Shown here in pieces: positions 10,244 to 30,119 of a stretch of 64,000 nucleotides of DNA. A model generated the notes under the pieces. The model searched no databases. It worked only from the letters and a program-made list of their open reading frames with translations, and was not told the DNA's origin. Position numbers and translations under genes: made by a program. Source of the stretch: an uncultured Gammaproteobacteria bacterium (GTDB lineage: Bacteria; Patescibacteriota; Patescibacteriia; Magasanikbacterales; GWA2-37-8). The stretch covers positions 6,200-70,199 of the forward strand of contig CAZHYG010000001.1 of assembly GCA_964536615.1 (NCBI GenBank). Reading direction: 5' to 3'. The stretch's first letter is position 1, and each line of letters begins with the position of its first letter.

Positions 10244-10340
10244 AGCAGATCCAGAAGGGGTAATTCACTCGTGTTAGGAATTAGGAGGGGTGTGCGGCGA
10301 GCCACATTAAAGCGCTTAATTGGCGTGCTCGCATATCTCA

Positions 10341-11066: not shown

Positions 11067-11104
11067 TTTAAAAATAGAAGCGCATATTTTTATAATATTA
11101 TCAA

Positions 11105-11136
11105 ACTACCCAAACCATTGGGTAGTTTTAATTTTG
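11105..11136 (+). terminator. Rho-independent terminator
   Basis: ACTACCCAA-ACCA-TTGGGTAGT hairpin plus TTTAATTTTG. Confidence 0.65.
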
Positions 11137-11206
11137 TATATTTTAGAATGAGTTTAATATTGACAAAACAATTTATTTTTGCTAGCTTTGGCGTTAAGGG
11201 GGTGCT

Positions 11207-11572
11207 ATGAAAAAAAATCTTAGCGCAGGAGAGGTCCTTGATCTTCTGGTGCTTGACTTGCTGAAAAGATCCGGTGTAGAGCGCGTTGTGTTTCGGCAAG
11301 TGTACGGCAAGTACCAGTCGCTACTGCGCGAGCACATGCTCTATCCGCTCATTGATGCCATTCTGCTGAGGCTGGGAAAGCGATCTACCGGTCGGCGAAC
11401 CGGCGCAACTAGGCGGTTTCTGGCATTTCTCATGAAAGTTCTGGTGAGCGAGCGGGTTGGGATTGCGATACCGGATTTCAAACCCAATGATTTTTCGCGT
11501 TGGGTTGTCTGGGGGAGTCAGATAAAGACCTGGTTGGAAGCAAGGCAAGCCAAAGACGAGAAGGTGCTGTAG
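11207..11572 (+). CDS. Hypothetical protein (121 aa), GC-elevated
   Basis: GGGGGT SD before the ATG; R-rich central segment; followed by a long hairpin terminator. Confidence 0.45.
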   Translation: MKKNLSAGEVLDLLVLDLLKRSGVERVVFRQVYGKYQSLLREHMLYPLIDAILLRLGKRSTGRRTGATRRFLAFLMKVLVSERVGIAIPDFKPNDFSRWVVWGSQIKTWLEARQAKDEKVL

Positions 11573-11675
11573 TATGGTCGCGCAAAAGCCGCCACCATGC
11601 CAATTATGTTCTAAATATTTTGGAATATAATTGGCTGGCGGCTTTTTTGTTTTATTTATTAAACAGATTACTAGA

Positions 11676-11704
11676 TTGACAAAATTGTATGTTTTATTTA
11701 TATT
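11676..11704 (+). promoter_or_regulatory. Near-consensus sigma70-type promoter TTGACA-N17-TATATT
   Basis: gaTTGACAaaattgtatgttttattTATATTcat lies immediately upstream of ORF 11712..11969. Confidence 0.55.
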
Positions 11705-11711
11705 CATCCTT

Positions 11712-11969
11712 ATGAGCAATTCGTCATATTTTGAGCAGTTGGTGCAGAAGCTTATGGCAGGGATAACCAAGGAGACTGGCAGGAGGTTTTTCCCCAGCTA
11801 CATCCTAGGTGGATGGTTTCTGAAAGAGCTCAACAAGCGCTTGGCAACGGAGTTGGGGGTTAACCCAGGTTTGTTGCCGTCGCAACTGCAGGCTCTTGAA
11901 ACGTATTTGCCTTTGGCGGGTAACTGCCTGATGCTCGCAATGGTAGAGCGTCAGTATGGGGAGTTGTGA
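11712..11969 (+). CDS. Hypothetical small protein (85 aa); internal start chosen because the longer ORF begins inside the upstream terminator hairpin
   Basis: ATG at 11712 follows the consensus promoter. The upstream ATG at 11631 sits within the terminator stem. Confidence 0.4.
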   Translation: MSNSSYFEQLVQKLMAGITKETGRRFFPSYILGGWFLKELNKRLATELGVNPGLLPSQLQALETYLPLAGNCLMLAMVERQYGEL

Positions 11970-12048
11970 TGCGGTTGTGTCCAGGTCGCTGTAATTGCAA
12001 AGATTAGATGTGTATATAATTTTTGCAATAGCGATCTGGGTAAATATA

Positions 12049-12080
12049 AACACCTTGGCTAAAATAGCCAAGGTGTTTTA
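12049..12080 (+). terminator. Rho-independent terminator
   Basis: AACACCTTGGCT-aaaata-AGCCAAGGTGTT plus TTTA. Confidence 0.6.
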
Positions 12081-12094
12081 GCGTGTGTTGAAAA

Positions 12095-12117
12095 TGTGAT
12101 ATAATATATATGGAGGT
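12095..12117 (+). promoter_or_regulatory. Extended -10 promoter (TGaTATAAT) plus GGAGGT Shine-Dalgarno for the downstream small gene
   Basis: tgtgaTATAATatatatGGAGGTagcggtATG. Confidence 0.5.
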
Positions 12118-12123
12118 AGCGGT

Positions 12124-12321
12124 ATGCCCGAAGCAAACCAAGAGTATTTGCGGCAGTGCGCGCAAGCCATGTCCGGTGAAGATCTGCTTGCTGCATTTGA
12201 ACGCGAGCTCACACAAGACATCTTCTACAGGGATGGTGGAGAAGATTCTTTGCAGTTGCAATGCTTGCGTGAGGAGTTGTTGAGGCGACTGAAACCTGAA
12301 GGAGAGAGAGGGCGAAGATAG
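12124..12321 (+). CDS. Hypothetical small helical protein (65 aa)
   Basis: Textbook promoter and SD upstream; E/R-rich helical sequence; GC-elevated. Confidence 0.45.
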   Translation: MPEANQEYLRQCAQAMSGEDLLAAFERELTQDIFYRDGGEDSLQLQCLREELLRRLKPEGERGRR

Positions 12322-12442
12322 TGCCGCTAAACATTTGCGCGCACAGAGACTCTTCGCCGTTGTTGTTTAATAGCAAAAATTATTATTAATCATAGAATAA
12401 TTAAATACATTTAGTTATTCTAAATATCGTATTGTATATAAT

Positions 12443-12958
12443 ATGAAAAAAATAGCGTCTGGTTTATTAGTTGGAGCTGTGGTATTGTCTGCCGTTCCGT
12501 TTTTGGTAAAAACCGTATCTGCTAACGATGATGCCAGTTCGGTTTCTGCAAGTTCTTCCACTCAAGATGTGTTGGAGCAAAAAAAACAAGAAATGGAACA
12601 GTTGCGTGAAGCTCAGAAGCAAGAAATGGAACAGAAACGTGAAGAGATGAAACAAGCTCTTGAGCTTAAAAAACAAGAATTAGAAAAAGCGCGTGAAGCA
12701 AAGAAGCAGGAAATGGCACAGAAGCGCGAAGAGATAAAAAAGAAAGAAGAAGCACGCAAAGCTAGAAATGCCGCCTATCGTGCCGCAGTTAAAAAAGCTC
12801 AAGCAGACCACAGGGCTGCGATTGTCGCTGCTAACAAAGCATATCAAGAAGCGTTAAAAGAAGCTAAAAAGTTGCTCTCCGCACCGCTTGTAATAGAAGT
12901 GCCGACATCAACTATGCCAGCCACCAGCACAACTTCAGCATCTTCCACTGCTATCTAG
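12443..12958 (+). CDS. Secreted low-complexity coiled-coil protein with KQEMEQ(K/L)RE repeats
   Basis: Signal peptide MKKIASGLLVGAVVLSAVPFLVKTVSA. Tandem KKQEMEQLREAQKQEMEQKREEMKQ repeats. ST-rich C-terminus. Confidence 0.6.
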   Translation: MKKIASGLLVGAVVLSAVPFLVKTVSANDDASSVSASSSTQDVLEQKKQEMEQLREAQKQEMEQKREEMKQALELKKQELEKAREAKKQEMAQKREEIKKKEEARKARNAAYRAAVKKAQADHRAAIVAANKAYQEALKEAKKLLSAPLVIEVPTSTMPATSTTSASSTAI

Positions 12959-12976
12959 TTTTTAAAAAAATATCAA

Positions 12977-13010
12977 AAAACACCCCGTCAATATGATTGG
13001 GTGTTTTTTT
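12977..13010 (+). terminator. Rho-independent terminator
   Basis: ACACCC-gtcaatatgatt-GGGTGT plus T7. Confidence 0.65.
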
Positions 13011-13023
13011 GTAATAAAAAAGA

Positions 13024-13098
13024 TCCGGACAGTGCGTGGTAAGAGGAGAGGAAACGAAGGAGGGTACGTTTCCTCCTTATACCACACAATGTCCGGAC
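13024..13098. other. Long compound hairpin (~25-bp imperfect stem with a nested inner hairpin), GC-rich; likely bidirectional terminator or structured RNA
   Basis: tccggacagtgcgtggtaagaggag...ggaaacg-aaggagggta-cgtttcc...ctccttataccacacaatgtccgga, located downstream of rplT on the minus strand. Confidence 0.4.
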
Positions 13099-13160
13099 CT
13101 AGTTGTTAATGAAGATATATTACCGATTTTTTTATTTTTGTCAAGATATTCTGTTGTGGA

Positions 13161-13514
13161 TTATTTTTCTGATTTTACAGATTCAGCAATCTTAGCAAAA
13201 ATAGTTTCGTGATGTTGAGCAAGCTGGGAAAGAATTTTTCTATCAAGCTCGATATTGCTCTTTTTGAGGGCGTCTATAAAGCGGCTGTAGCTCATGCCAA
13301 ATTCTCTAACAGCAGCATTGATTTTTACGTTCCAAACGCCGCGGTTAAGGCGTTTTTTGATCTTGCGATCATTGAAAGCATATTGGCCAGCTTTCATTTT
13401 AGCAGGTTTTGCTAATTTGATTTTGGATTTTCTGCCCCAGCGGAAACCTTTTGTATGTTTGAGAATGCCGCGGCGGCGTTTTGCGTGGAGTAAACCACCT
13501 TTGATACGTGTCAT
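13161..13514 (-). CDS. rplT: 50S ribosomal protein L20
   Basis: MTRIKGGLLHAKRRRGILKHTKGFRWGRKS... is a canonical L20 N-terminus; 117 aa. Confidence 0.95.
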   Translation of the reverse strand: MTRIKGGLLHAKRRRGILKHTKGFRWGRKSKIKLAKPAKMKAGQYAFNDRKIKKRLNRGVWNVKINAAVREFGMSYSRFIDALKKSNIELDRKILSQLAQHHETIFAKIAESVKSEK

Positions 13515-13539
13515 AACGTTTTGGTGTTAGTAAGTATTA

Positions 13540-13737
13540 TTAAGCATTTGGTAAGTTGGTTGCCATGACGCGGTTGAGGGTGGTGCTGGCAATAACATCT
13601 GATTTTTTGTTGCGGCCGGTGTTGCCGTTTTCTCGTGCGTTGAAATGGTTTTGGCCAGCAGTGCGTTTAACAATTTTTCCTTTGCTGGTTAATTTATATC
13701 TTTTAGCCGTTGCTTTGTGAGTTTTTAATTTAGGCAT
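13540..13737 (-). CDS. rpmI: 50S ribosomal protein L35
   Basis: MPKLKTHKATAKRYKLTSKGKIVKR; 65 aa. Confidence 0.9.
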   Translation of the reverse strand: MPKLKTHKATAKRYKLTSKGKIVKRTAGQNHFNARENGNTGRNKKSDVIASTTLNRVMATNLPNA

Positions 13738-13766
13738 ATTGTTATAAACAATTATTATATTTAAAA

Positions 13767-14312
13767 TTATTTTTTGGCGATGATCGCGCTCACTTTATTC
13801 ATTTGAAATTCAATATCTTGATCTTTGCGTACCGGTAGGGAAGCATTGACGTTAGATACAAATTTTTCAATAACAGAGGCGGCCATTGGTTTTTGTTGCA
13901 TTTCTCGGCCTTTTAAAATGATTTCTGCTTTTACCTTATCGCCATCGTTTAAAAATTGAATTGTTTGATTTTGCCTGATTTCCATATCGTGCGGAGAAAT
14001 TCGGAGGGAAAGACGAACGCATTTAACTTCTGTTACATGCGCATGAGCTTGTTTTAAACGCTCTTCTTTTTCTTGTTGGTATTTAAATTGTCCAAAGTCC
14101 ATGATTTTTGCCACTGGAGGATTGGATTTTGGGTTGATAAGAACTAGGTCCAACTCCTGTTCTTTGGCCAATGTCATGCCTTTAGCCGGTGGCATAACAC
14201 CCAAATTTGAACCATCGCTATCAAGAACCATAACTTCAGGAACTGTGATGCCGAGGTTAAAAAAATAAGTTCGTTTCGGTTCTGGTTTATGTTTTTTATG
14301 TGAAATACGCAT
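13767..14312 (-). CDS. infC: Translation initiation factor IF-3 (start trimmed to the ATG at 14312; the longer track ORF overlaps tmRNA)
   Basis: IF-3 N- and C-domains present (EVMVLDSDGSNLGVMPPAKGMTLAKEQELDLVLINP...QQKPMAASVIEKF). Canonical infC-rpmI-rplT order. Confidence 0.85.
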   Translation of the reverse strand: MRISHKKHKPEPKRTYFFNLGITVPEVMVLDSDGSNLGVMPPAKGMTLAKEQELDLVLINPKSNPPVAKIMDFGQFKYQQEKEERLKQAHAHVTEVKCVRLSLRISPHDMEIRQNQTIQFLNDGDKVKAEIILKGREMQQKPMAASVIEKFVSNVNASLPVRKDQDIEFQMNKVSAIIAKK

Positions 14313-14354
14313 AAATAATATTTGTGCCACATGATGCCGTACAAGGCATTTCTG

Positions 14355-14772
14355 TGGAGGTGGCGAGAGTTGAACTCGCGTGTAGATAACTATGACTAAA
14401 CCGTCTACATACTTAGTGTCTCTTGGTGTGTCCTGGGCCAATAAAAGAGGACGAAAATTGGCTCAGCGAGCCGAGGAGACTTCACGATGCGATAATCGGC
14501 ATTACCGCCTCGCTACACTCAATGAATAACACCGTGGTTCGGTTATTGAGCATTGCCGATACGATGTCTCAAATCACGAAGGATCTGAGATAACCAGCAT
14601 GGTTCTTAGGCCATTACTGGAGCAAAGTTGGTGCTGAAAGCGTTAGCTACAGCAGACTTTACTTTTGATAACAAGTTTGCACTTATTATGTTGCTCCGTG
14701 TGATTTACGAGGAAAAGAGCTTCCTCGGTATGCAAGTGTAGCCAGAAGCTCCTATCGAAGCCCGGCACCCCC
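14355..14772 (-). ncRNA. ssrA: tmRNA (ssrA)
   Basis: On the minus strand the 5' end is GGGGGTGCCGGGCTTCGA... The 3' end ACGCGAG-TTCAACT-CTCGC-CACCTCC-A gives a tRNA-like T-arm plus acceptor stem pairing with the 5' GGGGGTG. An internal tag ORF starts at a GCA AAC resume context (ANLLSKVKSAVANAFSTNFAPVMA-stop). It lies immediately downstream of smpB. Confidence 0.85.
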
Positions 14773-18415: not shown

Positions 18416-21400
18416 ATGCTTAGAGAGCGTGTTTCCAACTCTGACTTTAAAGGCGCAGAAATCGGTAAGTATAAAAAAGGCAAGCGAGTAGTCGTTAATA
18501 TTGAAGGTGAGTGGCAAGTGCGAGAACTGTTTGCGCCTGCGGCTGTTGAAAAAGGCAAGCTAAAATTGACTCTTGATAAAGGTGATGAAATTTTTGTCGA
18601 TTCTCCTCCGAGAATTGTAAAATTTTCCAAGTTAGACACTTTAACCGACGATCGAAAAGGCGGGGATTTTGTTGTTCATGGTGCATTCGCCACTCAGGAT
18701 GGTCGTTTGGAATATAATCTTACAACACCTGACGGCAAGATGTATAAGGGTATACCGGAAGAATTTTTGGATGTCTGGTCAAAAACTGTGGCTATGGAAG
18801 CTGAGGTTGAAGATTTAGAAAATAATATACAAGCATTAGGGGTAAAAGCACAGAAAGATTTACATGAAAAAATAAGCAAATTAAAAACTGCCTTGATGGG
18901 TACTTTTGAAAATTTACCCAAAGATTTTAAGGCAATGACAAAATCAGGAAAAAAAGATGTTGCTAGTGCAGTCAAAAAAATTAAATCTTTGCATGCCGAG
19001 GCCGCTCGGCATATTGATGATTTGAGATTAAAAATAGACGAAGCTAAAGTTAATGGTGCCGGTAAAAAATCAAAAATCGAGCACACAGAGACTGATACAG
19101 ACAAGCAAACTAGAAAAGCGCAGGAAGAAGGCTCTGCCGCGTTTAAAACAAAAAAAGCAAAATCAGTGAAAGAGTTCATGGGAAAACGGCTGGAACAGGA
19201 CAAAGAAGAAGCGTTGGCAGATAAAAAAAGATCTGTTCGCAATGAATACGAGAGTAAATTAAAAGAATGGGAAGATCAAAAAAGAGCCATGGCTCGTCCG
19301 GAACCAAAACAGCCAAATTATAAGGCTATTCAGCTTGACGCTGTTGAAGAAAACACTATTAGGCAAGATTACGATAAGCAACTTGCACTAATGCCTCAAA
19401 AAATGGAATACGAAAATGCTATGGATATTAATCGCCACCTCGAGGATGGTTTTAACAGTCGGCGTACGCAGAAGCTTGATGAAGCCCTTGATGCAAAAAG
19501 AAAAAACACTAAAGATCCTAAGGCTGCTTTGAGCAAGCGCGAAGTAGCGATGGTTGAGAAAGAATTGCGCACCACATTGATTGGAGAGGCGGTAGAAGAT
19601 TTTTCAGAATTGAGTGCTGCGTTAGAGCAAAAAAGAAAAGCAATGGCTGCAAAAGAAGCAGACCCGAAAGCTGCCGGGGTTGATCCAAATACAGGCGATT
19701 ATCTATCTACTCGGCAAGAAGAAATCAACGCTCGTTTGTACGATGCTTTTATAAAAGAAAGAATTAAGCAGTACGATGTTGCTCGAAAAGATTTAGAAAG
19801 AGAAGAAAAAGATGAAATTTTTAAAGCATTAGAAAATAAAAAAGAAGAAGCGTATAAAAAGTTTTTAGCAGACAGCGCCGAGTGGGATATAGAAAAAAGC
19901 AAGCTTAAGAAGCGGCCTGATGAGCCTGTGGAAAGCAGTGTTGTATTAACAAAAGACGAAGAAAAACAGGTGGCTGCAAAATCAAAATTTGAAACTATTA
20001 AATATTTGGTTGATCAAAATACAGACCTTAAGTTTAGTTTGGTTAAAAAAAGAATGGAGAAAGCAAAAACAGATCCAGATAAAGAAAATATCATTACATT
20101 ATCAAACGGTGAATCTGATTATAATGATGATAAAAAAGATGAAGTAAATGCCGAATTATTTGATGAGGTGTTGGCAGATTGGGAAAAAACCTATGAGTTT
20201 AAAGAGAAAGAACACGATGCCAATGCAGAAATTTTTGATTTTACAAATGAAATAAATAAAATAAATGCTGCTGCGCTGGACTGTGAACAGTCTATTCCGC
20301 AAACAAATGGAGTACCGGATAAGCCGTACCAGGGAGTGTATAAGGAGCTGTTAAAAAATAAAAAAGATTTTGCCAACACTCTGACAGCGTTAAGCGGTAT
20401 AGATGCTGCTAAAAAAGCAGGTTTCATTGGAGCGGCCGATGGGCAAGAAGAGTTGTATAAGGCGCGCGAGCGAGAGGCCGAAAAAATTAATAAAATTATA
20501 GATGGGCTTACTCAACAAATAGAAAAAATAAAAACCATTGAAAGCTTTGGCGAGAAATTCGAACAAACAGAAAAAATGACGCCAATAGATTTGCGGTCTT
20601 CTTTGGTGGAAAGAATTTTGAGTTTAAATGTTGATCAAGCCAAAAAAGCTATGAAAGCGTTGTATCGCGGTGATGCAACGGAAGAATTTAAACAACTAAT
20701 TGGCGATACGCCGCCGGCTGGAATTTCTGAAGTTGAGTTACGCAAGGCAGGCATCAAAGATTGGGCTGATTTTAAAGAATTGTGGGATGCAAGATTGGCC
20801 AAGGAGGTGGCGGTCAATATGGAAGAAATGGCTAAGCAAAGAATTTTACAAAAAGTGGCCGAAGCTATGGATAGCCTTAGTGGTGTTTGGGAAAAAATTA
20901 AAGCCATAAAAGGACAAATGACACTTCGGGCTGGCTTAAGTGCTCTGCTTGTGGGCGGATCGGCAATGACGGCTCGAACACTGCTGGGTAGTTTTTCTGA
21001 AGTGCTTCATAGTGCGGCGGTAATGGCAGGCGGCGCGGCAGGCGGCGCGGGAAAATGGTTGGTGGGCAGTAAGCTTTTTGGTAAAGACAGCGCCTGGGGA
21101 AAAGATGGCGCAAAAGCGATGCAAAAATTACAAGCCAAAACAGCAGATGATTTAGTTGATAGTATTGTGGACGAAGCTTTTGAATTTGCGTTTTCTCCGG
21201 TTCAGCCGCCAGTGCAAAAAGGATTTTTTAGAAAAATGTGGTCTTTTGTTTCTAAACCAAGCGAGCAGGAATTTACTAAAACGCAGCATAAAAAACACAT
21301 GCTTGACGGCATGCCAATGATGAGTTCGGTAATTGCCGGTACGATTAGAGATATAACCGGAGGCAGTCTTGAAGTAGAAACTGCTGAAGGCAAAGTTACC

Positions 21401-24127
21401 TTAAGTGGCGCAAATAGAATTAAGTTTGAAAAAGCATTAGGTCGTCTAGAAACCCAAAATCCCGAAGAAGAGCAGGTTAAAAATCTAGCTTTGGTTTTTG
21501 CAAAAATGTCTCAAAAAGGCGATGAGCTGCAAGCTCAAATGAAACATTTGGGACCAGGCAAGGCATCGCTTGGCGATACATGGCTGCAAAATTATTCTGG
21601 TCGCGGCAGTTTGGGCAAATCGGTGGCGATAAATTCCGCTTTAGCAGGTGTATTTTTGGCATCGAGTACAGCCAGGGCTGCGTTTGGCGCGGTTGTTGGT
21701 GCGTATAGTGGCTATAAAACCGGCGAAAGAATGTTTGCCAAAAAAGAACAGCAAGTTGCTAAAGAAAAATTGTTGGAAAAAATTTCTCATTTTACTTACG
21801 GAGTCCAATCATTTGAGGCGCTTACTCCTCAAGCAAAAATTGCGTTTAAAGCTGATTTAATATACCTTAAGAAATTCTTACACGGAAATGCCGCTCAGGA
21901 AGATCTATTGGCCGCAGTGCAAATTACCGAAGCTGGGCCAGTCGTAGACCAAATGCTTCTTTCGCAGATAGAAAGCTTGATTCACGAGGCGGAAGATATG
22001 GGTGCGTTAATAGAAAATAAAGAAGATGGGATGAATTTAGAAAAAGTATTGGCAGCCATGCAAGAATATCAGGGCAAAATTTCTGAAAAAGATAAGAAAA
22101 AAGTTGGTGAGCGATTTGCAAGATGGCTGGCAAAAGGAGTGTACAAGTTTGGCGGTGCCGCAGTCGGTGGCGCGGCAAGTGCTGGAATATATCTTGTTGG
22201 CGGGCCATTAATTGGAAAGGCTGTTGGAGCATTGCGTTCAAAACTTGGTTTGGGTGCAACACATGATCTTGTATCAACTGAGTCTGCAAAGAACATTGCT
22301 GTAGAACATATCGACGGATTAGAATCATACCAAGACAACTCCAGTGCTTTAGAGCGTGCAGATGGTTTGGTTTCGTATCCAGACGGTTCCGGTTTTGCAG
22401 AAAATATAAATCCAGATGTAGCAAACTTTGCAGCCGAACATCATTTAAGCGAACATTCAGCCCAATATCTAAATCAATTTGGTTCGTTGCAAACACACCC
22501 AGAATCGCTTAATAGAATTTTGGAAGCAAGCCATATTGGAGGTGATGGCCGCTCGCATTTTACCGGCAGTAAATTAGATAATCTTATAGAAGTTGGCGGT
22601 GAGCGTCGCGCTGTGATTTTTGAAGAGTTGTTAAAACATGATAAGCAAGCAGCGATTAAATTTTTGGAAGATCAAGATTTTAGCAAACAGCACCTTACCC
22701 ACCTGGCTGTTTTTGCAGACAAAAAAGGCCATGTTGACTTTGTTAAATTTGTAGAGAAATATAATCCAAATGATAAAAAAATGTCCTTGGCTTTGTTTAA
22801 AGCCATGCAAGGTAAAGAAAACACCGAGCTGGCCAATGCTGGGTTTGTCCGTGCAGCCACAGCTGATCATACAGGCCGAATAGTTCAAGTAAAAGGCGGG
22901 GTGGAATATTTCGGCTTGGATAAAAATGGTAAGCCAATTTTGAGCGGAGATGGCCAGGTGATGGTGAGAGAAACTATTTTGAGGACAGGTTCAGCAGCTG
23001 AACATAACGAAGGTTTAAGTACTGATGATAAATTATGGGCAAATGCCAATGTTATGCGCGGTATGCGGGCTGACGGCACCCCATTTGAAGGTGATACCAA
23101 AAATGTTTTGCCTGAATTTTCACCTAAAGGTATCGCTCAGTTTATGCAAGGCGAAGCAGATAAAGCTCAGTTTGCTAAAATGGGCGAAGAGCATATCAAT
23201 GCGTTGGACAGACCGATTGGTAGAAATGATGTTACTCTTACCAAATTTAACGTAACCCATTTACTGGATAAAGAGGGTAATCCAATTGAGCGAAGGACTT
23301 TTGCAGAACAGCCTGCCGAATCTCCGGTACCAGATAATGCGTTCAAACCACTTAAGAATCCTCAAACAAGCAAAGAAATTGCTGGTAAAACAGCCGCTAT
23401 CTATACTGCTGATAAACTAGTGGAAAGAGGGCAGGTTGTGGGAAATAGAGGGGTGAGAAGTAGTTCTCCTTCAGAAGAAATGGTTTCTCGAAGTGAATTT
23501 GCGCAAACTGAAGAAGTTAATTCTTCTCCTTTGGTTGAAGCTGGATCAGAAACAAAACCCGCAGCAAAAGTTGAAACTACACCCAATACTTTAGAGTTAA
23601 CGGAAGCGCAGAGAGATTATGTAGATAAGCTAAATAATGTATTTAGATCTCTTACTGAAAATGAAATCGGTCAAAAAATGGACTCATACACGTTTAAAAA
23701 TGATTCTGAAAATGTAATATATAATGCTATAACTAATGAGTCAGCTTTTAAAAACTTCAGAGACTATATTGAAAGCCTTTCAAATAATAAGCAACCAAGC
23801 TTAAGTCAGCAAGAAATAAGAGAGTTTGACAACCTGTTAAAAACTTACGATGCTGGTAACCAAAATTGGTACAAGATGATTAAAAATGACGAGCTTCGCT
23901 TGATGCTTGATCCTAGTGACGCATCTATGGTTGCAAATAATAGTCATGCAGTAAGAATTTGGGACCAGGAAAAACAGGAAGAGTTGTTTATTACCAACCC
24001 TCAGTATACTTTTGTAACAAAAGGTGATAGCCTCTTGAAAATGGATGGTGATAGAGTGGTGGATACATGGAAAAACTACAAAGAAGCGATTGCTACCGCT
24101 AGACAGTCTTCAAATATGAATAGATAA
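18416..24127 (+). CDS. Giant (1903 aa) K/E-rich coiled-coil low-complexity protein with Gly/Ala-rich amphipathic segments and a ~500-aa globular C-terminal region
   Basis: Uninterrupted 5.7-kb ORF in host-like codon usage. Segments such as AGGAAGGAGKWLVGSKLFGKDSAWGKDG and GGAAVGGAASAGIYLVGGPLIGKAVGAL. A strong hairpin terminator lies downstream. Confidence 0.75.
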   Translation: MLRERVSNSDFKGAEIGKYKKGKRVVVNIEGEWQVRELFAPAAVEKGKLKLTLDKGDEIFVDSPPRIVKFSKLDTLTDDRKGGDFVVHGAFATQDGRLEYNLTTPDGKMYKGIPEEFLDVWSKTVAMEAEVEDLENNIQALGVKAQKDLHEKISKLKTALMGTFENLPKDFKAMTKSGKKDVASAVKKIKSLHAEAARHIDDLRLKIDEAKVNGAGKKSKIEHTETDTDKQTRKAQEEGSAAFKTKKAKSVKEFMGKRLEQDKEEALADKKRSVRNEYESKLKEWEDQKRAMARPEPKQPNYKAIQLDAVEENTIRQDYDKQLALMPQKMEYENAMDINRHLEDGFNSRRTQKLDEALDAKRKNTKDPKAALSKREVAMVEKELRTTLIGEAVEDFSELSAALEQKRKAMAAKEADPKAAGVDPNTGDYLSTRQEEINARLYDAFIKERIKQYDVARKDLEREEKDEIFKALENKKEEAYKKFLADSAEWDIEKSKLKKRPDEPVESSVVLTKDEEKQVAAKSKFETIKYLVDQNTDLKFSLVKKRMEKAKTDPDKENIITLSNGESDYNDDKKDEVNAELFDEVLADWEKTYEFKEKEHDANAEIFDFTNEINKINAAALDCEQSIPQTNGVPDKPYQGVYKELLKNKKDFANTLTALSGIDAAKKAGFIGAADGQEELYKAREREAEKINKIIDGLTQQIEKIKTIESFGEKFEQTEKMTPIDLRSSLVERILSLNVDQAKKAMKALYRGDATEEFKQLIGDTPPAGISEVELRKAGIKDWADFKELWDARLAKEVAVNMEEMAKQRILQKVAEAMDSLSGVWEKIKAIKGQMTLRAGLSALLVGGSAMTARTLLGSFSEVLHSAAVMAGGAAGGAGKWLVGSKLFGKDSAWGKDGAKAMQKLQAKTADDLVDSIVDEAFEFAFSPVQPPVQKGFFRKMWSFVSKPSEQEFTKTQHKKHMLDGMPMMSSVIAGTIRDITGGSLEVETAEGKVTLSGANRIKFEKALGRLETQNPEEEQVKNLALVFAKMSQKGDELQAQMKHLGPGKASLGDTWLQNYSGRGSLGKSVAINSALAGVFLASSTARAAFGAVVGAYSGYKTGERMFAKKEQQVAKEKLLEKISHFTYGVQSFEALTPQAKIAFKADLIYLKKFLHGNAAQEDLLAAVQITEAGPVVDQMLLSQIESLIHEAEDMGALIENKEDGMNLEKVLAAMQEYQGKISEKDKKKVGERFARWLAKGVYKFGGAAVGGAASAGIYLVGGPLIGKAVGALRSKLGLGATHDLVSTESAKNIAVEHIDGLESYQDNSSALERADGLVSYPDGSGFAENINPDVANFAAEHHLSEHSAQYLNQFGSLQTHPESLNRILEASHIGGDGRSHFTGSKLDNLIEVGGERRAVIFEELLKHDKQAAIKFLEDQDFSKQHLTHLAVFADKKGHVDFVKFVEKYNPNDKKMSLALFKAMQGKENTELANAGFVRAATADHTGRIVQVKGGVEYFGLDKNGKPILSGDGQVMVRETILRTGSAAEHNEGLSTDDKLWANANVMRGMRADGTPFEGDTKNVLPEFSPKGIAQFMQGEADKAQFAKMGEEHINALDRPIGRNDVTLTKFNVTHLLDKEGNPIERRTFAEQPAESPVPDNAFKPLKNPQTSKEIAGKTAAIYTADKLVERGQVVGNRGVRSSSPSEEMVSRSEFAQTEEVNSSPLVEAGSETKPAAKVETTPNTLELTEAQRDYVDKLNNVFRSLTENEIGQKMDSYTFKNDSENVIYNAITNESAFKNFRDYIESLSNNKQPSLSQQEIREFDNLLKTYDAGNQNWYKMIKNDELRLMLDPSDASMVANNSHAVRIWDQEKQEELFITNPQYTFVTKGDSLLKMDGDRVVDTWKNYKEAIATARQSSNMNR

Positions 24128-24148
24128 TTGATAATAACTAAAAAGTTA

Positions 24149-24188
24149 GAAAAACCTTGGTGAAAACCTAAGGTTTTTCTTTTATTTT
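24149..24188 (+). terminator. Rho-independent terminator after the giant gene
   Basis: GAAAAACCTTGG-tgaaaa-CCTAAGGTTTTTC followed by a T-rich tract. Confidence 0.65.
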
Positions 24189-24220: not shown

Positions 24221-24249
24221 TTGACAAAAATAACAATGTATGGTATAGT
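24221..24249 (+). promoter_or_regulatory. Near-consensus promoter TTGACA-N17-(TGg)TATAGT directed into the high-GC island
   Basis: ctaTTGACAaaaataacaatgtatggTATAGTg. Confidence 0.55.
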
Positions 24250-24277
24250 GCTCTATCGTTTGAAAGATGGCAGTATT

Positions 24278-24360
24278 GCGAGAGGTATTGCCAAACCTAT
24301 TAAACGAATGAATAGTCATGTTAGTTTTTTACAACCTCTCTCGCAAAGTGAGGTTTTACT
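24278..24360 (+). promoter_or_regulatory. Leader region with mutually exclusive hairpins (attenuator-like) and a possible 25-codon leader ORF
   Basis: GCGAGAGGT (24278-86) pairs with ACCTCTCTCGC (24334-44). This overlaps a terminator-like AACCTC-tctcgcaaagt-GAGGTT plus a U-run (24333-24360). The ORF ATGaatagtcat... (24308) spans both. Confidence 0.35.
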
Positions 24361-24492
24361 GTTTCTAATTAGCGCGTCAATGTAATAGTTGATGTGCGAA
24401 CCGGTAACGGTAACACTCGTGCGCTTCGTGTGGTCGAGTGACCTTGCGAAGCAAACGGGAGTGAGGCGCCTTAGATGCGCCTTGGAGGTTCC

Positions 24493-25224
24493 ATGCACAC
24501 GCCTTCCTCGGGTACGCAGCAGATCACTGGCCAGCAGGCCGCCGTCAAGACCCAGGTCATCGATCGTGGCGGCTGGTCGAGCTGGGCCAGGCTCGCCTTC
24601 GTCGCGCTGGCTGTGATGCTCATCACCGGGCTCATCGCCTGGTCGGTGGTGGGTGGCGGCAAGAAGCCGTCCGCCGCGGGTGGCAGCGTCCACCACGCCG
24701 CCGACGGTGGTGTTGCCAGCGACGACAAGCCGGTCGTCGAGGCCACGAAGCCGCCCACGGTCGCGCTCGACCTGAGCCCGCTCAACACGAGCTTGAACGA
24801 GCTCAACACCACCTTGGGTGGCATGGGCGATAGCATCGCCAGCAAGGTCGGCGAGAAGATGGACGAGAGCAACGAGGTGATCGTCCAGAAGCTCGACCAG
24901 CTGCTCGCGCAGCAGGCCAAGCCGGATGATTCGTCCGGTGGCTCGGCAGGGGACAAGACCGACGACACCAAGGTCAACGGTGGCAGTGATGCCAAGCCAC
25001 CGTGCGACGATCATCTCAAGGCGCTCACGATCGAAGATCGTGTTGGCGCGCTAGAGACGTGGCGTACCGGGGTCGACAAGACCCTCAAGCGCCACACCCG
25101 GCAGATTCGTCGGATCAACGACCGCCTCGGTCAGCTCAGTGGTGCGCAGGTCACCGACCTGCCCGGCTACAAGACCGCGGTGGCGACCCACAGCGCTGTC
25201 GTGCACCTGAAGTACGACAAGTAG
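24493..25224 (+). CDS. Membrane-anchored (single N-terminal TM) coiled-coil protein; high-GC foreign gene
   Basis: GGAGGT SD 5 nt upstream. GC3-rich codons. TM WARLAFVALAVMLITGLIAWSVV, then a hydrophilic helical region. The antisense ORFs on the other strand are R/D-rich and judged spurious. Confidence 0.6.
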   Translation: MHTPSSGTQQITGQQAAVKTQVIDRGGWSSWARLAFVALAVMLITGLIAWSVVGGGKKPSAAGGSVHHAADGGVASDDKPVVEATKPPTVALDLSPLNTSLNELNTTLGGMGDSIASKVGEKMDESNEVIVQKLDQLLAQQAKPDDSSGGSAGDKTDDTKVNGGSDAKPPCDDHLKALTIEDRVGALETWRTGVDKTLKRHTRQIRRINDRLGQLSGAQVTDLPGYKTAVATHSAVVHLKYDK

Positions 25225-25573
25225 ATTCCTCCTCAACCAGGCTGTCGTCAGATCGAGAAATCGAACTGACAACGCCTCAAGAGGGGAAGACGGGATGTTC
25301 TTCGCAAGAAGAGCATCCCGGGAGAAAATCATCTTCTTAAAACATATCATGTATTAGGAATATGATAAGCTCTAACAAAGCGAAAAGAAAATATAGTTCT
25401 TTAAAATTAAAAAACAAACAAAAGTAACCGTTGTTCCGTATTTATTATATTTATTAATATATATAAATAAATATATATAGTAAGTACGGAGCGACGGTTA
25501 AAAACACCGTCACCAACAACTCCCAGGCCCAACGGCCTGAAACCGGCCGTTGTGGCCAACCTTTGCCGGCTCT
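25217..25573 (+). repeat. 357-bp intergenic cassette, copy 1 (identical to 26458..26814)
   Basis: Begins at the last codons (caagtag) of the upstream gene. Contains two GNRA-tetraloop hairpins (GTCAGATCGA-GAAA-TCGAACTGAC; GGATGTTCTTC-GCAA-GAAGAGCATCC) and a TATCAT/ATGATA inverted repeat. A 44-bp AT-rich block is flanked by the imperfect inverted repeat aaccgttgttccgta/tacggagcgacggtt, followed by GACGGT-taaaaac-ACCGTC and CAACGGCC-tgaaacc-GGCCGTTG hairpins. Confidence 0.85.
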
Positions 25574-25601
25574 AATGGAGCCAGAATTGCGAGTTCAGTC
25601 A

Positions 25602-26465
25602 ATGAAGACGATCCTTTGCGTGATGATGCTTGCCATCGCAACCTTCGGCGGCAACGCCAAGGCACAGCCCCGGGTCACCGTGACGCAGGACGTGCCGCCC
25701 CCGGAGCCCTGTGCTCCGGGCCAGCCGCGTGACACGGTCTCGCACGACGCCTCGGGCGTCGACGAGACCATCAAGGTCAACGGCCTCGAGACCCCGTGTC
25801 TCGAGCTCACGGTCCACCTGCCCAAGGCGATGGATCCGGCGCTTGCGCCGATCATCCCCACGGCCCCCATCGACAACGATGGTGGCCTGGATCGCCACGG
25901 CACGAGCACCAACGATCTCATCGAGATCTCGCGCACGGCTGCCTCGGCGGCCAACGAGGTCGCAAAGGCTCAGGCGCGGTGGAACTTCGGGCTGGCGAGC
26001 CAGGTGCTCGCGGTCTCGCACAAGGGCACGACCGCCTCGTATGGCCTCCTCGGCCTGTACGGTGTACGTGCCACCCGGGCCACGCTCGTTCAGCTGCAGG
26101 GTGGTCTCGGCAAGGACAGCGAGGGGAATCTCGCTATCGGCGCCGCGCTCATGGCGGGATACAAGGTCGGTGAGCGTGCTGCTGTTGGCATCGCGCTCAC
26201 CGGCACCGATTCCATCGATCAGAGGGGAGACAAGGATCGCGAGGTCCTCATGCTCCGTTCGGTCGGGGTCGGCCCCAGCGTCACGATGACGTTGGGCAGC
26301 ACCGTCAACGTCACCATCGCTGGTGGCGTGGCATGGAGCGGTAAGCCCATTGATGGGCGTCGTGTGGACGGTGTCCTGGTCGAAGAGCCGGGGCGTTCTT
26401 ACGCCTTCGGTGGCTACGGCACGGTCACGCTGAACCTCGGCCTCAAGGGCCTGTTCAGCAAGTAG
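25602..26465 (+). CDS. Secreted protein (signal peptide, beta-rich C-terminal half); high-GC foreign gene
   Basis: MKTILCVMMLAIATFGGNAKA-QP signal peptide. Alternating hydrophobic beta-strand-like pattern (VTMTLGSTVNVTIAGGVAWSG...YGTVTLNLGLKGLFSK). GC3-rich. Confidence 0.6.
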   Translation: MKTILCVMMLAIATFGGNAKAQPRVTVTQDVPPPEPCAPGQPRDTVSHDASGVDETIKVNGLETPCLELTVHLPKAMDPALAPIIPTAPIDNDGGLDRHGTSTNDLIEISRTAASAANEVAKAQARWNFGLASQVLAVSHKGTTASYGLLGLYGVRATRATLVQLQGGLGKDSEGNLAIGAALMAGYKVGERAAVGIALTGTDSIDQRGDKDREVLMLRSVGVGPSVTMTLGSTVNVTIAGGVAWSGKPIDGRRVDGVLVEEPGRSYAFGGYGTVTLNLGLKGLFSK

Positions 26466-26814
26466 ATTCCTCCTCAACCAGGCTGTCGTCAGATCGAGAA
26501 ATCGAACTGACAACGCCTCAAGAGGGGAAGACGGGATGTTCTTCGCAAGAAGAGCATCCCGGGAGAAAATCATCTTCTTAAAACATATCATGTATTAGGA
26601 ATATGATAAGCTCTAACAAAGCGAAAAGAAAATATAGTTCTTTAAAATTAAAAAACAAACAAAAGTAACCGTTGTTCCGTATTTATTATATTTATTAATA
26701 TATATAAATAAATATATATAGTAAGTACGGAGCGACGGTTAAAAACACCGTCACCAACAACTCCCAGGCCCAACGGCCTGAAACCGGCCGTTGTGGCCAA
26801 CCTTTGCCGGCTCT
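26458..26814 (+). repeat. 357-bp intergenic cassette, copy 2
   Basis: Base-for-base the same as 25217..25573 by reading, again starting at the caagtag stop region of the preceding gene and ending at gccggctct just before the next gene's RBS. Confidence 0.85.
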
Positions 26815-26834
26815 TCGGAGCCATGGAGAAAGAC

Positions 26835-28185
26835 GATGAAGAAGCTGATGATGTATCTGGTGTGCGTGGCGGCCCTCACGGGCTGCCTCCTCGAGAATGG
26901 CAAGGTCGTCGACGAGACGACCGACGCTGGTGTCGACGCCTCCGAGAGCAAGTGTACGGTCACCATCCGAGCGACCGACAGCATCGCCAACGAGAACGGC
27001 GACACCGCCATGGTGCAGTTCGAGCGGAGCAACTGCTCCCTCGACAAGCAGCTCGAGGTCAAGTTCGACCTCAGCGGTACGGCCAGCAGCTCCGACTACG
27101 TGGGGCTCGCGGAGTGGTACGCCCTCATCCCTGCCGGTCAGACCGAGGCCACCATCGTGGTGGTCCCGTTCAACGACACGATCGACGAGAGCGACGAGAC
27201 CCTGATCTTCACCATCCGTCCGGAGCCCCACCTCATCGTGGGTGCGCCGGCCGCGGCGACGGTGACGATCACCGATGACGACAGCCCGCCGCCCACGCCG
27301 TTCCTGAACTTCAGCTGCAGCCCCAACGGCATCACTGCCGGCGGTAGCAGCACCTGCACGTGGACTTCGAACGCCACGGCGTGCACGCTCTCCGGTGGCC
27401 AGTTCGGCTCCGGGGTGGCTCAGGCGGGTAACGGTTCGGTCGTGGTGAGCAACATCACCACGACCACGACTTTCGGCATGACCTGTAACAACGGTCAGAC
27501 CAAGTCGTCGACGGTGACGGTCAATACGCAGCAGCAGTGCACTGGCAACGGTACCCTGACGGCGAACACCCTGTTCATCGTCGTGGGGAGCCCCATCGAC
27601 TTGGACGCGACGTTCAACTGTCCGTCCGGTACGATCGCCCGAGTCGAGTTCAAGGTGGGTAGCACCACCCTCTGCACCGACACGAGCGCGGCCTACCACT
27701 GCGACTGGGACAATGCCACTGTCGGCACGCACACCGTCATCGCGACGGCGTACTCGGCGAGTGGCACCCAGCTCCAGCAGACCAACCCCCTCCAGATCGA
27801 GGTGGCGCAGACGTCGCAGCAGGTGTCGTGTCACGGCCTCGGCCTCTACTTCTCCAACACCCAGGTGAACAACATCACCCGGTGCACGAAGTGGAGCGCT
27901 ACGGGGTCGGGTACCGACATCGCCAAGTCGACGTTCGTGGATGGCGGTCTGGGCGCTTGCGCCCTGACCTGCTACGACCTCACGGGTAACACGGTCCTGC
28001 CGCTGGCGGTGACCGGTGTCTGGCTGCAGAACGGAACGAGCGACGTCACCCGGTGGTACACCAGTGGCTGCGCGCGGCTCCCGTGGCACCCCGCTGCCGA
28101 GCCCGACCAGGCTGGTGGCGCCTGGGACCGGCTTTGCGATCGTTCGGTCGCCAGCCTGAGTGGTCCGCCCAACACCAACCAGTAG
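26835..28185 (+). CDS. Lipoprotein with a Calx-beta-like domain and Cys-rich Ig-like repeats; high-GC foreign gene
   Basis: GGAG SD. MKKLMMYLVCVAALTGC lipobox (LTGC). Calx-beta-like motif DYVGLAEWYALIPAGQTEATIVVVPFNDTIDESDETLIFTI. Many Cys and Thr/Ser-rich beta segments. Confidence 0.6.
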
Positions 28186-28502
28186 TGGTGGACAAAGGTT
28201 CCCGAACCTAAAAAATCGGAAATGTCCGCGCCATTGATGTGAATCGAGGGTGTGGCAAGAGTCTTATCCGCGGGTTCTTCGGAACCCGCGCGATTGAATC
28301 AGTTTCTTACTTGTATAGAATAGGGAACTGATACTGATCGAAAACAATTAATACTAGTGTCAAAAAATAGAAAGTAGGTTACAATAGACCTACTTTAAAA
28401 TTATCATTCGAGATTTGAAAATAGTTTATTTTTAAATCTCGGGCAATAATACCCGACAAGTTCGGCTCATTTCCCGCCTGATGCGGGTGAATCGGGGTTG
28501 CA

Positions 28503-29249
28503 ATGAAGATTTTCTGCTGTCTGGTGCTAGTCATCACCGCTTGCTCCTTTAACCCGTCGGGTTCGCTCGACGGAGAGGTAGATGCAATGGGTGATGGAGT
28601 AGTCCTCACCCCCGACGCCCAGATCGATGCGCCCATCGATGCTCCGCCGCCCTTGGTGGCGAGCATTGTGGGAGACTGCTACGTCCGCCCGCAGGCTCCG
28701 CCTGCCGACGGGGTGACCGTGGGTCGTCCCAAGACCCTGGTCTGCCTCGCGGAAGCGAGGCAGTGTACGGCGACCAACAGCCGCGTTCCGAGCGCTCCGC
28801 TTCCCATGACCCCACCGGTCCAACCTGGTGTGGGCGAGTGGGAGGTTTCGTTCACCCCGGTGTTCACCGGTGTGAACGAGTTCACCTTCACCTGTGAAGG
28901 TGATGTGGGTAGTGTGGCGACTGCAGGACCGCTGGCACTTCATGCCATGTCCTTGCAGATCACCGAAGGAGTTTCGGTGATCGACCAGAGCCTCGGGCAG
29001 TACCAACTGCTCAATCGCAACGGTCGAATCCGGCTCGTCTGGGGTATCCCGGACGATCCAACGCCCCAAACGTGCGGCAACTCGGTTTCCGGGCTGCCAA
29101 CGGTCAACATCGGAAGTGGAGGGCGTCCGTGCGTGGGCGAAATCTACGACCTGCTTGTTCCAACGAACGGACCAGCGGGGACAGTGGTTCTTCGCTTCTC
29201 GTCGGCGTTGTATGTGGGGTCTGTGTCTGTTGCAGTGCCGGCCTCGTAG
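28503..29249 (+). CDS. Lipoprotein, paralog 1 of a tandem pair; high-GC
   Basis: MKIFCCLVLVITAC lipobox-like signal. 611 bp (28604..29214) are identical to 29474..30084. Confidence 0.6.
   Translation: MKIFCCLVLVITACSFNPSGSLDGEVDAMGDGVVLTPDAQIDAPIDAPPPLVASIVGDCYVRPQAPPADGVTVGRPKTLVCLAEARQCTATNSRVPSAPLPMTPPVQPGVGEWEVSFTPVFTGVNEFTFTCEGDVGSVATAGPLALHAMSLQITEGVSVIDQSLGQYQLLNRNGRIRLVWGIPDDPTPQTCGNSVSGLPTVNIGSGGRPCVGEIYDLLVPTNGPAGTVVLRFSSALYVGSVSVAVPAS
28604..29214 (+). repeat. Tandem duplication unit, copy 1 (611 bp identical to 29474..30084)
   Basis: Direct comparison of the two blocks shows identity through ...cggcgttgtatg, then divergence; the period is 870 bp. Confidence 0.85.
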
Positions 29250-29387: not shown

Positions 29388-30119
29388 ATGTCTCTCAGAA
29401 CATTGTTTGCAGTGTTGTTGACGATAGTTTGTGGTGGCGGATGTAATCTGGTCTTCGGACTGGATGAGGTTCGCCTCACCCCCGACGCCCAGATCGATGC
29501 GCCCATCGATGCTCCGCCGCCCTTGGTGGCGAGCATTGTGGGAGACTGCTACGTCCGCCCGCAGGCTCCGCCTGCCGACGGGGTGACCGTGGGTCGTCCC
29601 AAGACCCTGGTCTGCCTCGCGGAAGCGAGGCAGTGTACGGCGACCAACAGCCGCGTTCCGAGCGCTCCGCTTCCCATGACCCCACCGGTCCAACCTGGTG
29701 TGGGCGAGTGGGAGGTTTCGTTCACCCCGGTGTTCACCGGTGTGAACGAGTTCACCTTCACCTGTGAAGGTGATGTGGGTAGTGTGGCGACTGCAGGACC
29801 GCTGGCACTTCATGCCATGTCCTTGCAGATCACCGAAGGAGTTTCGGTGATCGACCAGAGCCTCGGGCAGTACCAACTGCTCAATCGCAACGGTCGAATC
29901 CGGCTCGTCTGGGGTATCCCGGACGATCCAACGCCCCAAACGTGCGGCAACTCGGTTTCCGGGCTGCCAACGGTCAACATCGGAAGTGGAGGGCGTCCGT
30001 GCGTGGGCGAAATCTACGACCTGCTTGTTCCAACGAACGGACCAGCGGGGACAGTGGTTCTTCGCTTCTCGTCGGCGTTGTATGGCGGATCAATCAGTGT
30101 GGAGGTCCCGGCCTCGTGA
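29388..30119 (+). CDS. Lipoprotein or secreted protein, paralog 2 of the tandem pair; high-GC
   Basis: AGGAGG SD 5 nt upstream of ATG (MSLRTLFAVLLTIVCGGGC). The body is identical to paralog 1 except the N-terminal signal region and the last ~10 residues. Confidence 0.6.
   Translation: MSLRTLFAVLLTIVCGGGCNLVFGLDEVRLTPDAQIDAPIDAPPPLVASIVGDCYVRPQAPPADGVTVGRPKTLVCLAEARQCTATNSRVPSAPLPMTPPVQPGVGEWEVSFTPVFTGVNEFTFTCEGDVGSVATAGPLALHAMSLQITEGVSVIDQSLGQYQLLNRNGRIRLVWGIPDDPTPQTCGNSVSGLPTVNIGSGGRPCVGEIYDLLVPTNGPAGTVVLRFSSALYGGSISVEVPAS
29474..30084 (+). repeat. Tandem duplication unit, copy 2
   Basis: Identical to 28604..29214. Confidence 0.85.

Follow-up and report, generated by a model that had tools for sequence, protein, structure and literature searches.

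The eps-associated RNA (EAR) of the Bacillales is a structured intergenic RNA of ~120 nt that occurs once, in an exopolysaccharide operon, and acts by processive antitermination; we know of no use of boxA by it. Other described intercistronic elements are the repetitive extragenic palindromic (REP) and bacterial interspersed mosaic (BIME) elements, REP being dispersed in hundreds of copies, and the RNase III sites of phage T7, a substrate of RNase III comprising some two helical turns (20 bp or more) of nearly perfect double-stranded RNA (dsRNA). For bacteria of the candidate phyla radiation (CPR) almost nothing is, to our knowledge, known about gene control at the RNA level. The boxA sequence recruits NusB/S10 and, together with other Nus factors, gives Rho-resistant elongation in rRNA operons, at the lambda nut sites, in CRISPR leaders and in some mRNAs (PMC7665894, PMC5725501). 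It is carried by rRNA operons in both leader and spacer (PMC4807359), and in transcripts other than rRNA it has been described in the leaders of CRISPR arrays (PMC7665894) and in the 5' untranslated region (UTR) of suhB and other genes (PMC5725501). Here we describe a strongly structured non-coding cassette that stands twice between the genes of an operon within a 64-kb stretch of bacterial DNA (contig CAZHYG010000001.1; the whole analysed stretch of 64,000 nucleotides is called the window below). Our preferred reading, to which we give roughly even odds (a probability of about 0.5), is that the cassette is an intercistronic module for Nus/boxA antitermination combined with mRNA processing and stabilisation. 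Its parts are of known kinds, namely a boxA, stabiliser hairpins and an RNase III-type stem, and what is new is the assembly, which is internal to a protein-coding operon, duplicated and homogenised, and found in CPR bacteria.

The cassette, its helices and its boxA-like element

The two copies of the cassette lie on the + strand at 25218-25573 and 26459-26814 and are identical over 356 bp with zero mismatches. A preliminary description, made from the sequence alone, had put the start one base too early and the length at 357 bp; base 25217 is an a and base 26458 a g, outside the identical run, and the identity of the two copies itself is real. As that description had said, each copy starts in the last codons of a gene (cAAG TAG), identity beginning 4 nt 5' of the stop codons at 25222-25224 and 26463-26465, and each ends before the next ribosome-binding site, identity stopping in the loop of the final hairpin (P7) 20-30 nt 5' of the start codon. 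The folding energy of the unit is -148.9 kcal/mol, compared with -77.3 +/- 5.4 in shuffles (z = -13), and the number of chance matches expected in the window for a 23-mer of the unit is 0. The repeat is not an assembly artefact, because the enclosed gene with cassette ends on both sides is present at 100% identity in three independent metagenome assemblies, whose contigs break inside the repeat as they do in true repeats. Short-read assemblies break at the 356-bp repeat, and it may be added as a separate observation that perfect direct repeats of this length around gene 2 (25218-26814) would be expected to permit RecA-mediated loss or amplification of that gene.

A search of Rfam 15 using E-value and gathering thresholds, covering the window and four loci, returned no family at or above threshold, in agreement with the earlier remark that no described family with this layout was recognised. 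The sub-threshold matches were confined to miRNA models on the AT-rich hairpin (24-38 bits, against thresholds of 81-200) and are taken as noise.

For gene 2, which is enclosed by the two copies, 5.8 billion protein clusters contained six homologues and 1.84 billion representatives a single cluster, every one from this clade, and full-length homologues of gene 3 are likewise confined to it. The contigs of these homologues yielded six further cassette lineages, so that the comparison comprises seven: the window, L004/5, L006/7, L008, L009/10/18, L011/12/16/17 and L019. In 7/7 lineages the cassette always lies between the same co-directional genes, following genes 1 and 2 wherever both are visible.

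Three helical elements follow the stop codon. P1 (25226-25288, in copy 2 26467-26529) has an outer CCUCC/GGAGG helix around a hairpin at 25247-25270 that is capped by a GAAA loop; P2 (25291-25320, in copy 2 26532-26561) is a 13-bp hairpin with a GCAA loop and compensatory changes in 11 of its 13 pairs; and P3 (25321-25373, in copy 2 26562-26614) consists of an outer GGAG/CUCU helix and an inner helix AUCAUCUUCUUAAA/UUUAAGAAGAUGAU. Across lineages the P1 loop is mostly of the GNRA type (GAAA, GCAA, GCGA) and the P2 loop is GCAA. Using RNAalifold on nine rows we recovered P1, P2, P3, the base of P4 and P6, with compensatory changes in 12 pairs. A covariance model of P1-P3 built from four lineages aligns all lineages, including the very divergent L019; in this alignment 93.8% of the cells of the 5' domain are paired, compared with 36-52% when the partners are slid, and two-sided (compensatory) changes are seen in 31 of 54 pairs, compared with 4-7, values reached in 0/500 shuffles, and as the alignment is fitted to the model these figures lean its way, by a margin that is nevertheless large. 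A 20-aa open reading frame (ORF) starting at an AUG within P2 was considered and rejected, this AUG being ACG or CCG in other lineages and covarying as a stem position.

The same covariance model finds a diverged third copy of the 5' domain at 28205-28342 (+), 3' of the stop codon of gene 3. It has a P1-like element with a GUGA loop, a P2-like element with a UUCG loop and a P3-like AAUCAGUUUCUUA helix, and its P3 keeps the same AAUCA-UUUCUUA sequence. A third copy after gene 3 is also present in L006, L008 and L018. Being placed after three successive stop codons the 5' domain is a module, and such a placement is in keeping with a function at cistron 3' ends. The rest of the spacer after gene 3 (28343-28502) is similar in layout to the cassette's 3' half without sequence homology, comprising in order a hairpin, CUACUUUAAAAUUA (a partial boxA), a long AU-rich hairpin at 28409-28444, an overlapping CGGG...CCCG hairpin, a CCCGC...GCGGG hairpin and the start codon.

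Between P3 and P4, 18 nt 5' of the ~32-bp stem of the latter, lies the boxA-like element GUUCUUUAAAA (25396-25406, in copy 2 26637-26647, + strand), a perfect match to the boxA consensus GYTCTTTAANA (GYUCUUUAANA as RNA) given by Baniulyte et al. (PMC5725501). It is followed by an A-rich spacer (25407-25424) that is predicted to be unpaired. The best-conserved unpaired block of the cassette is G[C/U]UCUUUAAAA, or in wider form [A/U]AG[C/U]UCUUUAAAAUUAAAA, and this block is kept in L019, where nearly all stem sequences have changed. The match is exact in six lineages (both window cassettes and the cassettes of L004-L010 and L019), in each of which all 10 specified positions of the 11-nt consensus agree. 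In the minimum-energy folds of all lineages the box, on the gene strand, is unpaired or part of a weak 6-bp helix, and in L004 the outer P3 helix extends into the first bases of the box. In E. coli rrnB the consensus pattern locates the genuine boxA, which likewise lies just 3' of a hairpin. No rRNA operon was found in the window or the fetched loci.

The 3' domain opens with P4 (25425-25500, in copy 2 26666-26741), a stem of ~32 bp with an invariant 19-bp base that contains three U.G wobbles and a hypervariable upper stem of AU pairs only, the latter free in sequence and length across lineages with its pairing kept. The AT block flanked by an imperfect inverted repeat that had been reported earlier is found here as 48 nt of 96% A+T inside the long imperfect repeat 25425-25500. 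Six lineages have a P4 of 27-33 bp and L019 one of about 22-30 bp, so that the stem offers the 20 bp or more of near-perfect dsRNA that characterise an RNase III substrate and is a candidate for one. P5 (25493-25511, in copy 2 26734-26752) is an alternative hairpin, GACGGUU...ACCGUC, that uses the 3' end of P4 and excludes the P4 base; this alternative is possible in all lineages, in L019 by means of a different and longer helix. A C-rich linker (25512-25525) precedes P6 (25526-25557, in copy 2 26767-26798), the GC-rich hairpin CAACGGCC/GGCCGUUG, which reads GGCCCAACGGCC-UGAAACC-GGCCGUUGUGGCC and is invariant in six lineages. The short hairpin P7 (25568-25582, in copy 2 26809-26822), just 5' of the start of gene 2 in the first copy, has the form GGCUC-loop-GAGCC, and the repeat ends in its loop, so that it reads GGCUC-UAAUG-GAGCC in copy 1 and GGCUC-UUCG-GAGCC in copy 2, UUCG being frequent across lineages. 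The hairpins and the alternative GACGGU/ACCGUC pairing of the preliminary description are thus all found, its structured 5'-UTR or cis-acting RNA reading fits, and its notion of a module is borne out, the unit being non-coding, strongly structured and copied between genes.

Across six lineages there is next to no sequence difference in the P4 base, the P5 partner, the C-rich linker and P6, and in L019 the P4 base, P6 and P7 are rebuilt with other sequences. Because its helices are invariant in the six, the 3' domain gives almost no covariation, and a covariance model of this domain accordingly carried almost no such signal and aligned L019 weakly. The CCGUUG / CAACGG motif of the P4 arms recurs in those of P6 (sites 25425-25434, 25491-25500, 25505-25511, 25529-25537 and 25545-25553). 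This would allow the two 5' arms, that of P4 and that of P6, to pair with each other, and several further helices that exclude one another are possible.

The GNRA and UUCG loops are correct on the + strand only, wobble pairs in the 3' domain number 28 G.U versus 4 A.C, and the element is co-oriented with the genes and their Shine-Dalgarno sequences. Tetraloops, boxA motif, Shine-Dalgarno sequences and 3'-domain wobbles thus agree in speaking for the + strand. Folding energies of the + and - strands are alike and do not discriminate between them. P4 together with the A-rich tract was also considered as a terminator for the minus strand and rejected, as the three invariant U.G pairs would be A.C mismatches there.

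Proposed antitermination with processing, and the alternatives

Under our preferred reading the cassette would be the DNA of a ~370-nt cis-acting RNA spacer within a polycistronic mRNA that starts from the promoter at 24221-24249. Such a spacer would present, from 5' to 3', P1-P3 after the stop codon, a single-stranded boxA with its A-rich spacer, P4, the C-rich linker, P6 and P7, and the ribosome-binding site. The boxA would recruit NusB/S10 and other Nus factors to the elongating polymerase, which when loaded in this way could survive a long untranslated C-rich spacer and then a further gene written in codons that are rare for the host. P4 may be cut by a nuclease of the RNase III type, specific for double strands, after which P1-P3 would protect the 3' end of the upstream cistron, and the 5' end of the next cistron, in front of its ribosome-binding site, would be shielded and shaped by P5, P6 and P7. 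Gene conversion would keep the two copies alike, and there is no sign that the unit is mobile. What the data show directly is the repeat, its maintenance at fixed sites, the + strand direction of its motifs, the 5'-domain helices and the agreement with boxA; Nus binding, antitermination, cleavage by RNase III and protection by the hairpins are inferred. The reading is also supported by the cassette having neither a U-tract hairpin on the + strand nor a conserved promoter inside it. If the model is true, boxA/Nus-type signals are built repeatedly into intercistronic spacers and fused with processing and stabilisation hairpins in CPR bacteria. The cassette would also show how cistrons can be insulated from each other by a naturally occurring part.

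Several points, in addition to the fitted alignment noted above, weigh against this reading. The consensus used is the gamma-proteobacterial one and may not be the boxA of this CPR clade, boxA being known to drift with phylogenetic distance (PMC7665894); the box of L017 has one mismatch, at position 9; and the spacer after gene 3 has only a partial match (CUACUUUAAAA). The window holds 3 sites for the pattern versus 0.65 expected, which is not significant, and two of the three are the repeat itself, so that the weight of the match would lie in its conservation across lineages. In the 5' domain wobbles do not discriminate the strand (G.U 24 versus A.C 20). The 3' domain has only 2 informative pairs, and the pairing of the P4 base and of P6 rests on thermodynamics and on the single divergent lineage L019. 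Finally, the model has no need of an invariant 3' domain or of the P4/P5 alternative, and these hint at an additional specific partner or a switch.

It is also possible, in our view somewhat unlikely, that the cassette is purely an mRNA processing and stabilisation module that works without Nus factors, cleavage taking place in the A/U-rich strand, in P4 or in both, and the hairpins setting the half-lives of the cistrons. The conserved box would then be the recognition site of a nuclease or another protein, and its likeness to boxA would be due to chance. The architecture fits this well, with hairpins at a 3' end, an A/U-rich single strand, a long dsRNA stem and hairpins at a new 5' end, and with the 5' domain recurring after three stop codons; there are documented cases of selective RNA processing and stabilisation and of programmed decay within operons (PMC10667835, PMC5927463), and the boxA match lacks significance in the window alone. 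What speaks for antitermination over processing alone is the box itself, which agrees at 10/10 specified positions in six lineages, whereas nuclease sites are usually far less constrained in sequence, and which is found at a second locus as well, 5 nt 3' of a promoter, where there is no upstream cistron to process.

The hint in the 3' domain is taken up by a second alternative, a regulatory switch or docking site in which the P4 base, P5, the linker and P6 sense a protein, a small RNA or a ligand and switching between P4 and P5 controls expression of the downstream gene. The sequence of the 3' domain is conserved far beyond what pairing needs, the P4-base/P5 alternative is possible in all lineages and is kept by L019 with a different sequence and a longer helix, and the repeated CCGUUG/CAACGG motif in the arms of P4 and P6 permits more alternative pairings. 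Yet P4, at 27-33 bp, is far stabler than P5 with its 6-7 bp, so that no equilibrium between them is expected in the full-length transcript, and neither fold is a terminator with a U-tract or sequesters the Shine-Dalgarno sequence. Considering also that Rfam gives no riboswitch match and that the same sensor before two unrelated genes is not obviously useful, we find this explanation doubtful.

The preliminary description had proposed a terminator, promoter and 5'-UTR unit. In such a unit P1-P3 would stop the upstream transcript, a promoter in the AT-rich part, such as one with the -10-like TATAGT in the 3' half of P4, would restart transcription, and the new transcript would begin with P5. While the 5'-UTR part fits, the other two parts are not supported. 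An intrinsic terminator scan of the + strand found no U-tract hairpin in either cassette of the window or of L004, though the organism uses canonical intrinsic terminators elsewhere, including nearby (e.g. 24148-24180). Promoter-like sites do occur in the AT-rich stems of the window cassettes (25337-25366 and 25454-25481), most lineages have a TATA(GT/AC/AA) hexamer at a constant distance 5' of the P4 3' arm, and under this arrangement P5 would readily be explained as the hairpin at the transcript's 5' end. These sites are however weak, matching at 9/12 positions, and they are not conserved: at the same threshold the L004 cassettes contain none, the sole + strand site of that island lying 5' of gene 1, for which reason an internal promoter was rejected. 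There is also no conserved -35, the hexamer is TATAAC, without the key final T, in three lineages, and the real promoters of the organism (24221 and ~55870) are near-consensus. Such a unit is therefore very unlikely. A sigma-54-like TGGCC-N-TTGC before P7 was rejected as well, its spacing being off by one and the motif not conserved.

The relation of the copies to each other differs within and between genomes. Within a genome they are 100% identical over 356 bp in the window and over 381 bp in L004, and 98% identical in L009/L010; in L006 and L008 they are 82-84% identical overall and mosaic, the L006 copies sharing their 5' half and the L008 copies their 3' half and the first 40 nt of the coding sequence. 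Between genomes cassette identity is 62-87%. Copies that are identical or mosaic within genomes and diverged between them point to gene conversion between two fixed copies, not to transposition. No further full copy was found in the 64-kb window or the fetched loci, including 20 kb of L004, using nhmmer and two covariance models; the unit had no blastn match in plasmids; and the exact P6 23-mer had none in genome contigs. Of two pattern scans, that for the P4 base gave one contig from a metagenome-assembled genome (MAG; L008) among genome contigs and no match in metagenome and viral contigs, and that for a degenerate P2-P3 gave two metagenome contigs only, both from one sample. A mobile or recombination cassette had also been suggested. 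An element of this kind, whether a miniature inverted-repeat transposable element (MITE), an integron attC-like or single-strand hairpin site, or a direct-repeat DNA device that deletes or amplifies gene 2, could draw on the perfect 356-bp direct repeats around one gene, on the recombination that homogenises the copies and has left mosaic tracts in L006 and L008, and on the hairpin-rich DNA, but is scarcely credible for a unit that has two copies per lineage at always the same orthologous sites and none elsewhere in the collections searched, that lacks the terminal inverted repeats, target-site duplications and dispersed copies of MITEs and insertion sequences, that has no transposase or integrase among the island genes and their immediate flanks in a Pfam scan, and whose RNA-type tetraloops, boxA and Shine-Dalgarno context indicate a function at the RNA level.

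The operon, its host and its composition

The window is bacterial chromosome of ~40% GC and carries ligA, ppsA, a murC-like gene, metG, ATP synthase genes and the tmRNA. The best named relatives of its LigA are from Candidatus Magasanikbacteria (79% and 75%) and other Parcubacteria/Patescibacteria, and on this basis the host is a CPR bacterium. Another carrier of the cassette, the species-representative MAG of L008 (contig CAZLNR010000008.1), is titled 'uncultured Gammaproteobacteria bacterium', which given the affinity of the window LigA is probably a mislabelled or mis-binned record. The tmRNA gene lies at 14352-14772 on the - strand (~420 nt, 110 bits) and a tRNA gene at 7213-7286 (+); in L004 smpB is found at the corresponding end of the synteny block.

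The cassettes belong to a five-gene operon on one strand (24.2-30.2 kb, the gene block 24.4-30.15 kb) with a GC content of 61-66%. Gene 1 (24475-25224, +; 249 aa as listed) has a GC content at third codon positions (GC3) of 0.85, and its stop codon begins the first cassette copy. Gene 2 (25602-26465, +) encodes a protein of 287 aa with a signal peptide, from an orphan family, and has a cassette copy on each side. The product of gene 3 (26836-28185, +) is a lipoprotein of 449 aa; it is the only one in which a Pfam scan of the island genes found domains, namely Big_7 and, as a weak match, Calx-beta. Signal peptides or lipoboxes are a feature of the island products. Genes 4 and 5 are tandem paralogues with near-identical DNA over ~640 bp (28593-29230 versus 29463-30100) that differ in their N-terminal signal/lipobox regions and last residues, a second case of homogenisation at this locus. 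Directly 5' of the island is an ORF of 1903 aa (18416-24127) without a Pfam domain, the L004 counterpart of which has 1481 aa and is 58% identical over 616 residues. For the Wzy-like neighbour an exact-sequence look-up gave no record.

The operon promoter (24221-24249, +) reads TTGACA-17-TATAGT with a TG extension, agrees at 11/12 positions and is the only strong promoter-like site of the island on the + strand; the same site is present in L004 and L006. It is followed by a conserved structured leader (24250-24474, +) 5' of gene 1, with a terminator-like hairpin CCUCUCUCGCAAAGUGAGG and then UUUU at ~24335-24362. In part of this leader (window 24250-24380; L004 8665-8800; L006 1525-1660) a long stem UCGUUUGAAAGAUGGCAGUAUUGCGAGAGG...UUAAACGA is found, and an alternative pairing of UUGCGAGAGG with CCUCUCUCGCAA is possible, giving it an attenuator-like look; it has no Rfam match.

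A third perfect boxA match, GTTCTTTAACA, lies at 55836-55846 on the - strand, 5 nt after the -10 of a TTGACA-17-TATATT promoter, and is followed 3' by a 17-bp hairpin, a Shine-Dalgarno sequence and a GC-rich ORF of 100 aa (55409-55711, -; GC3 0.64). At this second locus (55700-55910, -) the same grammar as in the cassettes recurs, and between 54.8 and 56.4 kb there are small GC-rich ORFs with promoter-like and terminator-like signals of their own.

The composition of the island appears to be an old feature. GC3 is 0.68-0.89 in the island, with A at 1-3% of third positions in genes 1-3, compared with 0.32-0.41 in the flanking genes and ~0.35 in the host genome. No GC-rich donor is visible, genes 2 and 3 having no homologues outside the clade. 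The 109-kb contig of L004 is syntenic with the window, with the giant ORF 5' of its island (8950-14450), five GC-rich genes and Wzy-like and GHL15-like genes 3'; protein identity between the two is 56-75% for flanking genes and 34-69% for the island. Since L004 keeps the same flanks at 56-75% protein identity, the island is as old as the split of the genomes. Five genes for orphan surface proteins have thus remained at a GC3 of ~0.85 in a genome of ~0.35 while flanking housekeeping proteins diverged to 56-75%, a persistence that standard amelioration theory does not predict and that we judge more surprising than the cassette.

A wider idea, which we regard as rather unlikely, is that the cassettes are part of a dedicated expression grammar, consisting of a near-consensus promoter and, for each cistron, a boxA, a long hairpin and tetraloop hairpins, that serves a few orphan genes for secreted proteins and lipoproteins in an AT-rich CPR bacterium. 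The GC3 of 0.7-0.9, which has lasted over family-level divergence and has no detectable GC-rich donor, may then be actively held and may be functionally tied to the boxA grammar: codons rare for the host would slow translation, slow translation would uncouple transcription, and uncoupled transcription would depend on repeated Nus/boxA antitermination. The composition may itself be the selected trait or be the product of strong biased gene conversion at a recombining locus.

Likeness to described antitermination and processing signals

With ~370 nt, seven helices, good covariation in half of its length and no entry in Rfam, the cassette is ready to be a candidate for a new RNA family, and each of the systems named at the outset shares some of its features. 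Among the closest are the leader and spacer signals of rRNA operons (boxB hairpin, boxA and boxC) with their RNase III stems. As there, a sequence that fits the boxA consensus GYUCUUUAANA, here predicted to be unpaired or only weakly paired, comes after a hairpin, a long processing-type stem starts shortly 3' of the box, and the transcription unit contains the box more than once. Unlike rRNA operons, the cassette stands between protein-coding cistrons, its long stem is a local hairpin that does not close around a gene, no boxC was recognised in it and its host is a CPR bacterium.

Its likeness to the boxA cases outside rRNA is that the consensus serves in other transcripts, guarding long untranslated RNA from Rho or regulating a downstream gene, and with the lambda nut sites it shares the order boxA, spacer, hairpin; we know of no N-like protein for the cassette system. 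Those cases are 5' leaders, whereas here two identical copies and a partial third lie inside an operon, in a multi-hairpin spacer of ~370 nt. With EAR the cassette has in common that it is an intergenic structured RNA in a long operon for the cell surface, proposed to permit read-through by the polymerase; the two have no similarity in sequence or structure, and Rfam, which includes EAR, gave no match. As in processing and stabilisation elements (PMC10667835, PMC5927463), hairpins stand at the 3' ends of cistrons and at new 5' ends with a cleavage-prone or dsRNA region between them, yet those elements consist of one or two weakly conserved hairpins, whereas the cassette extends over ~370 nt with seven helices, is found at one locus and contains a boxA.

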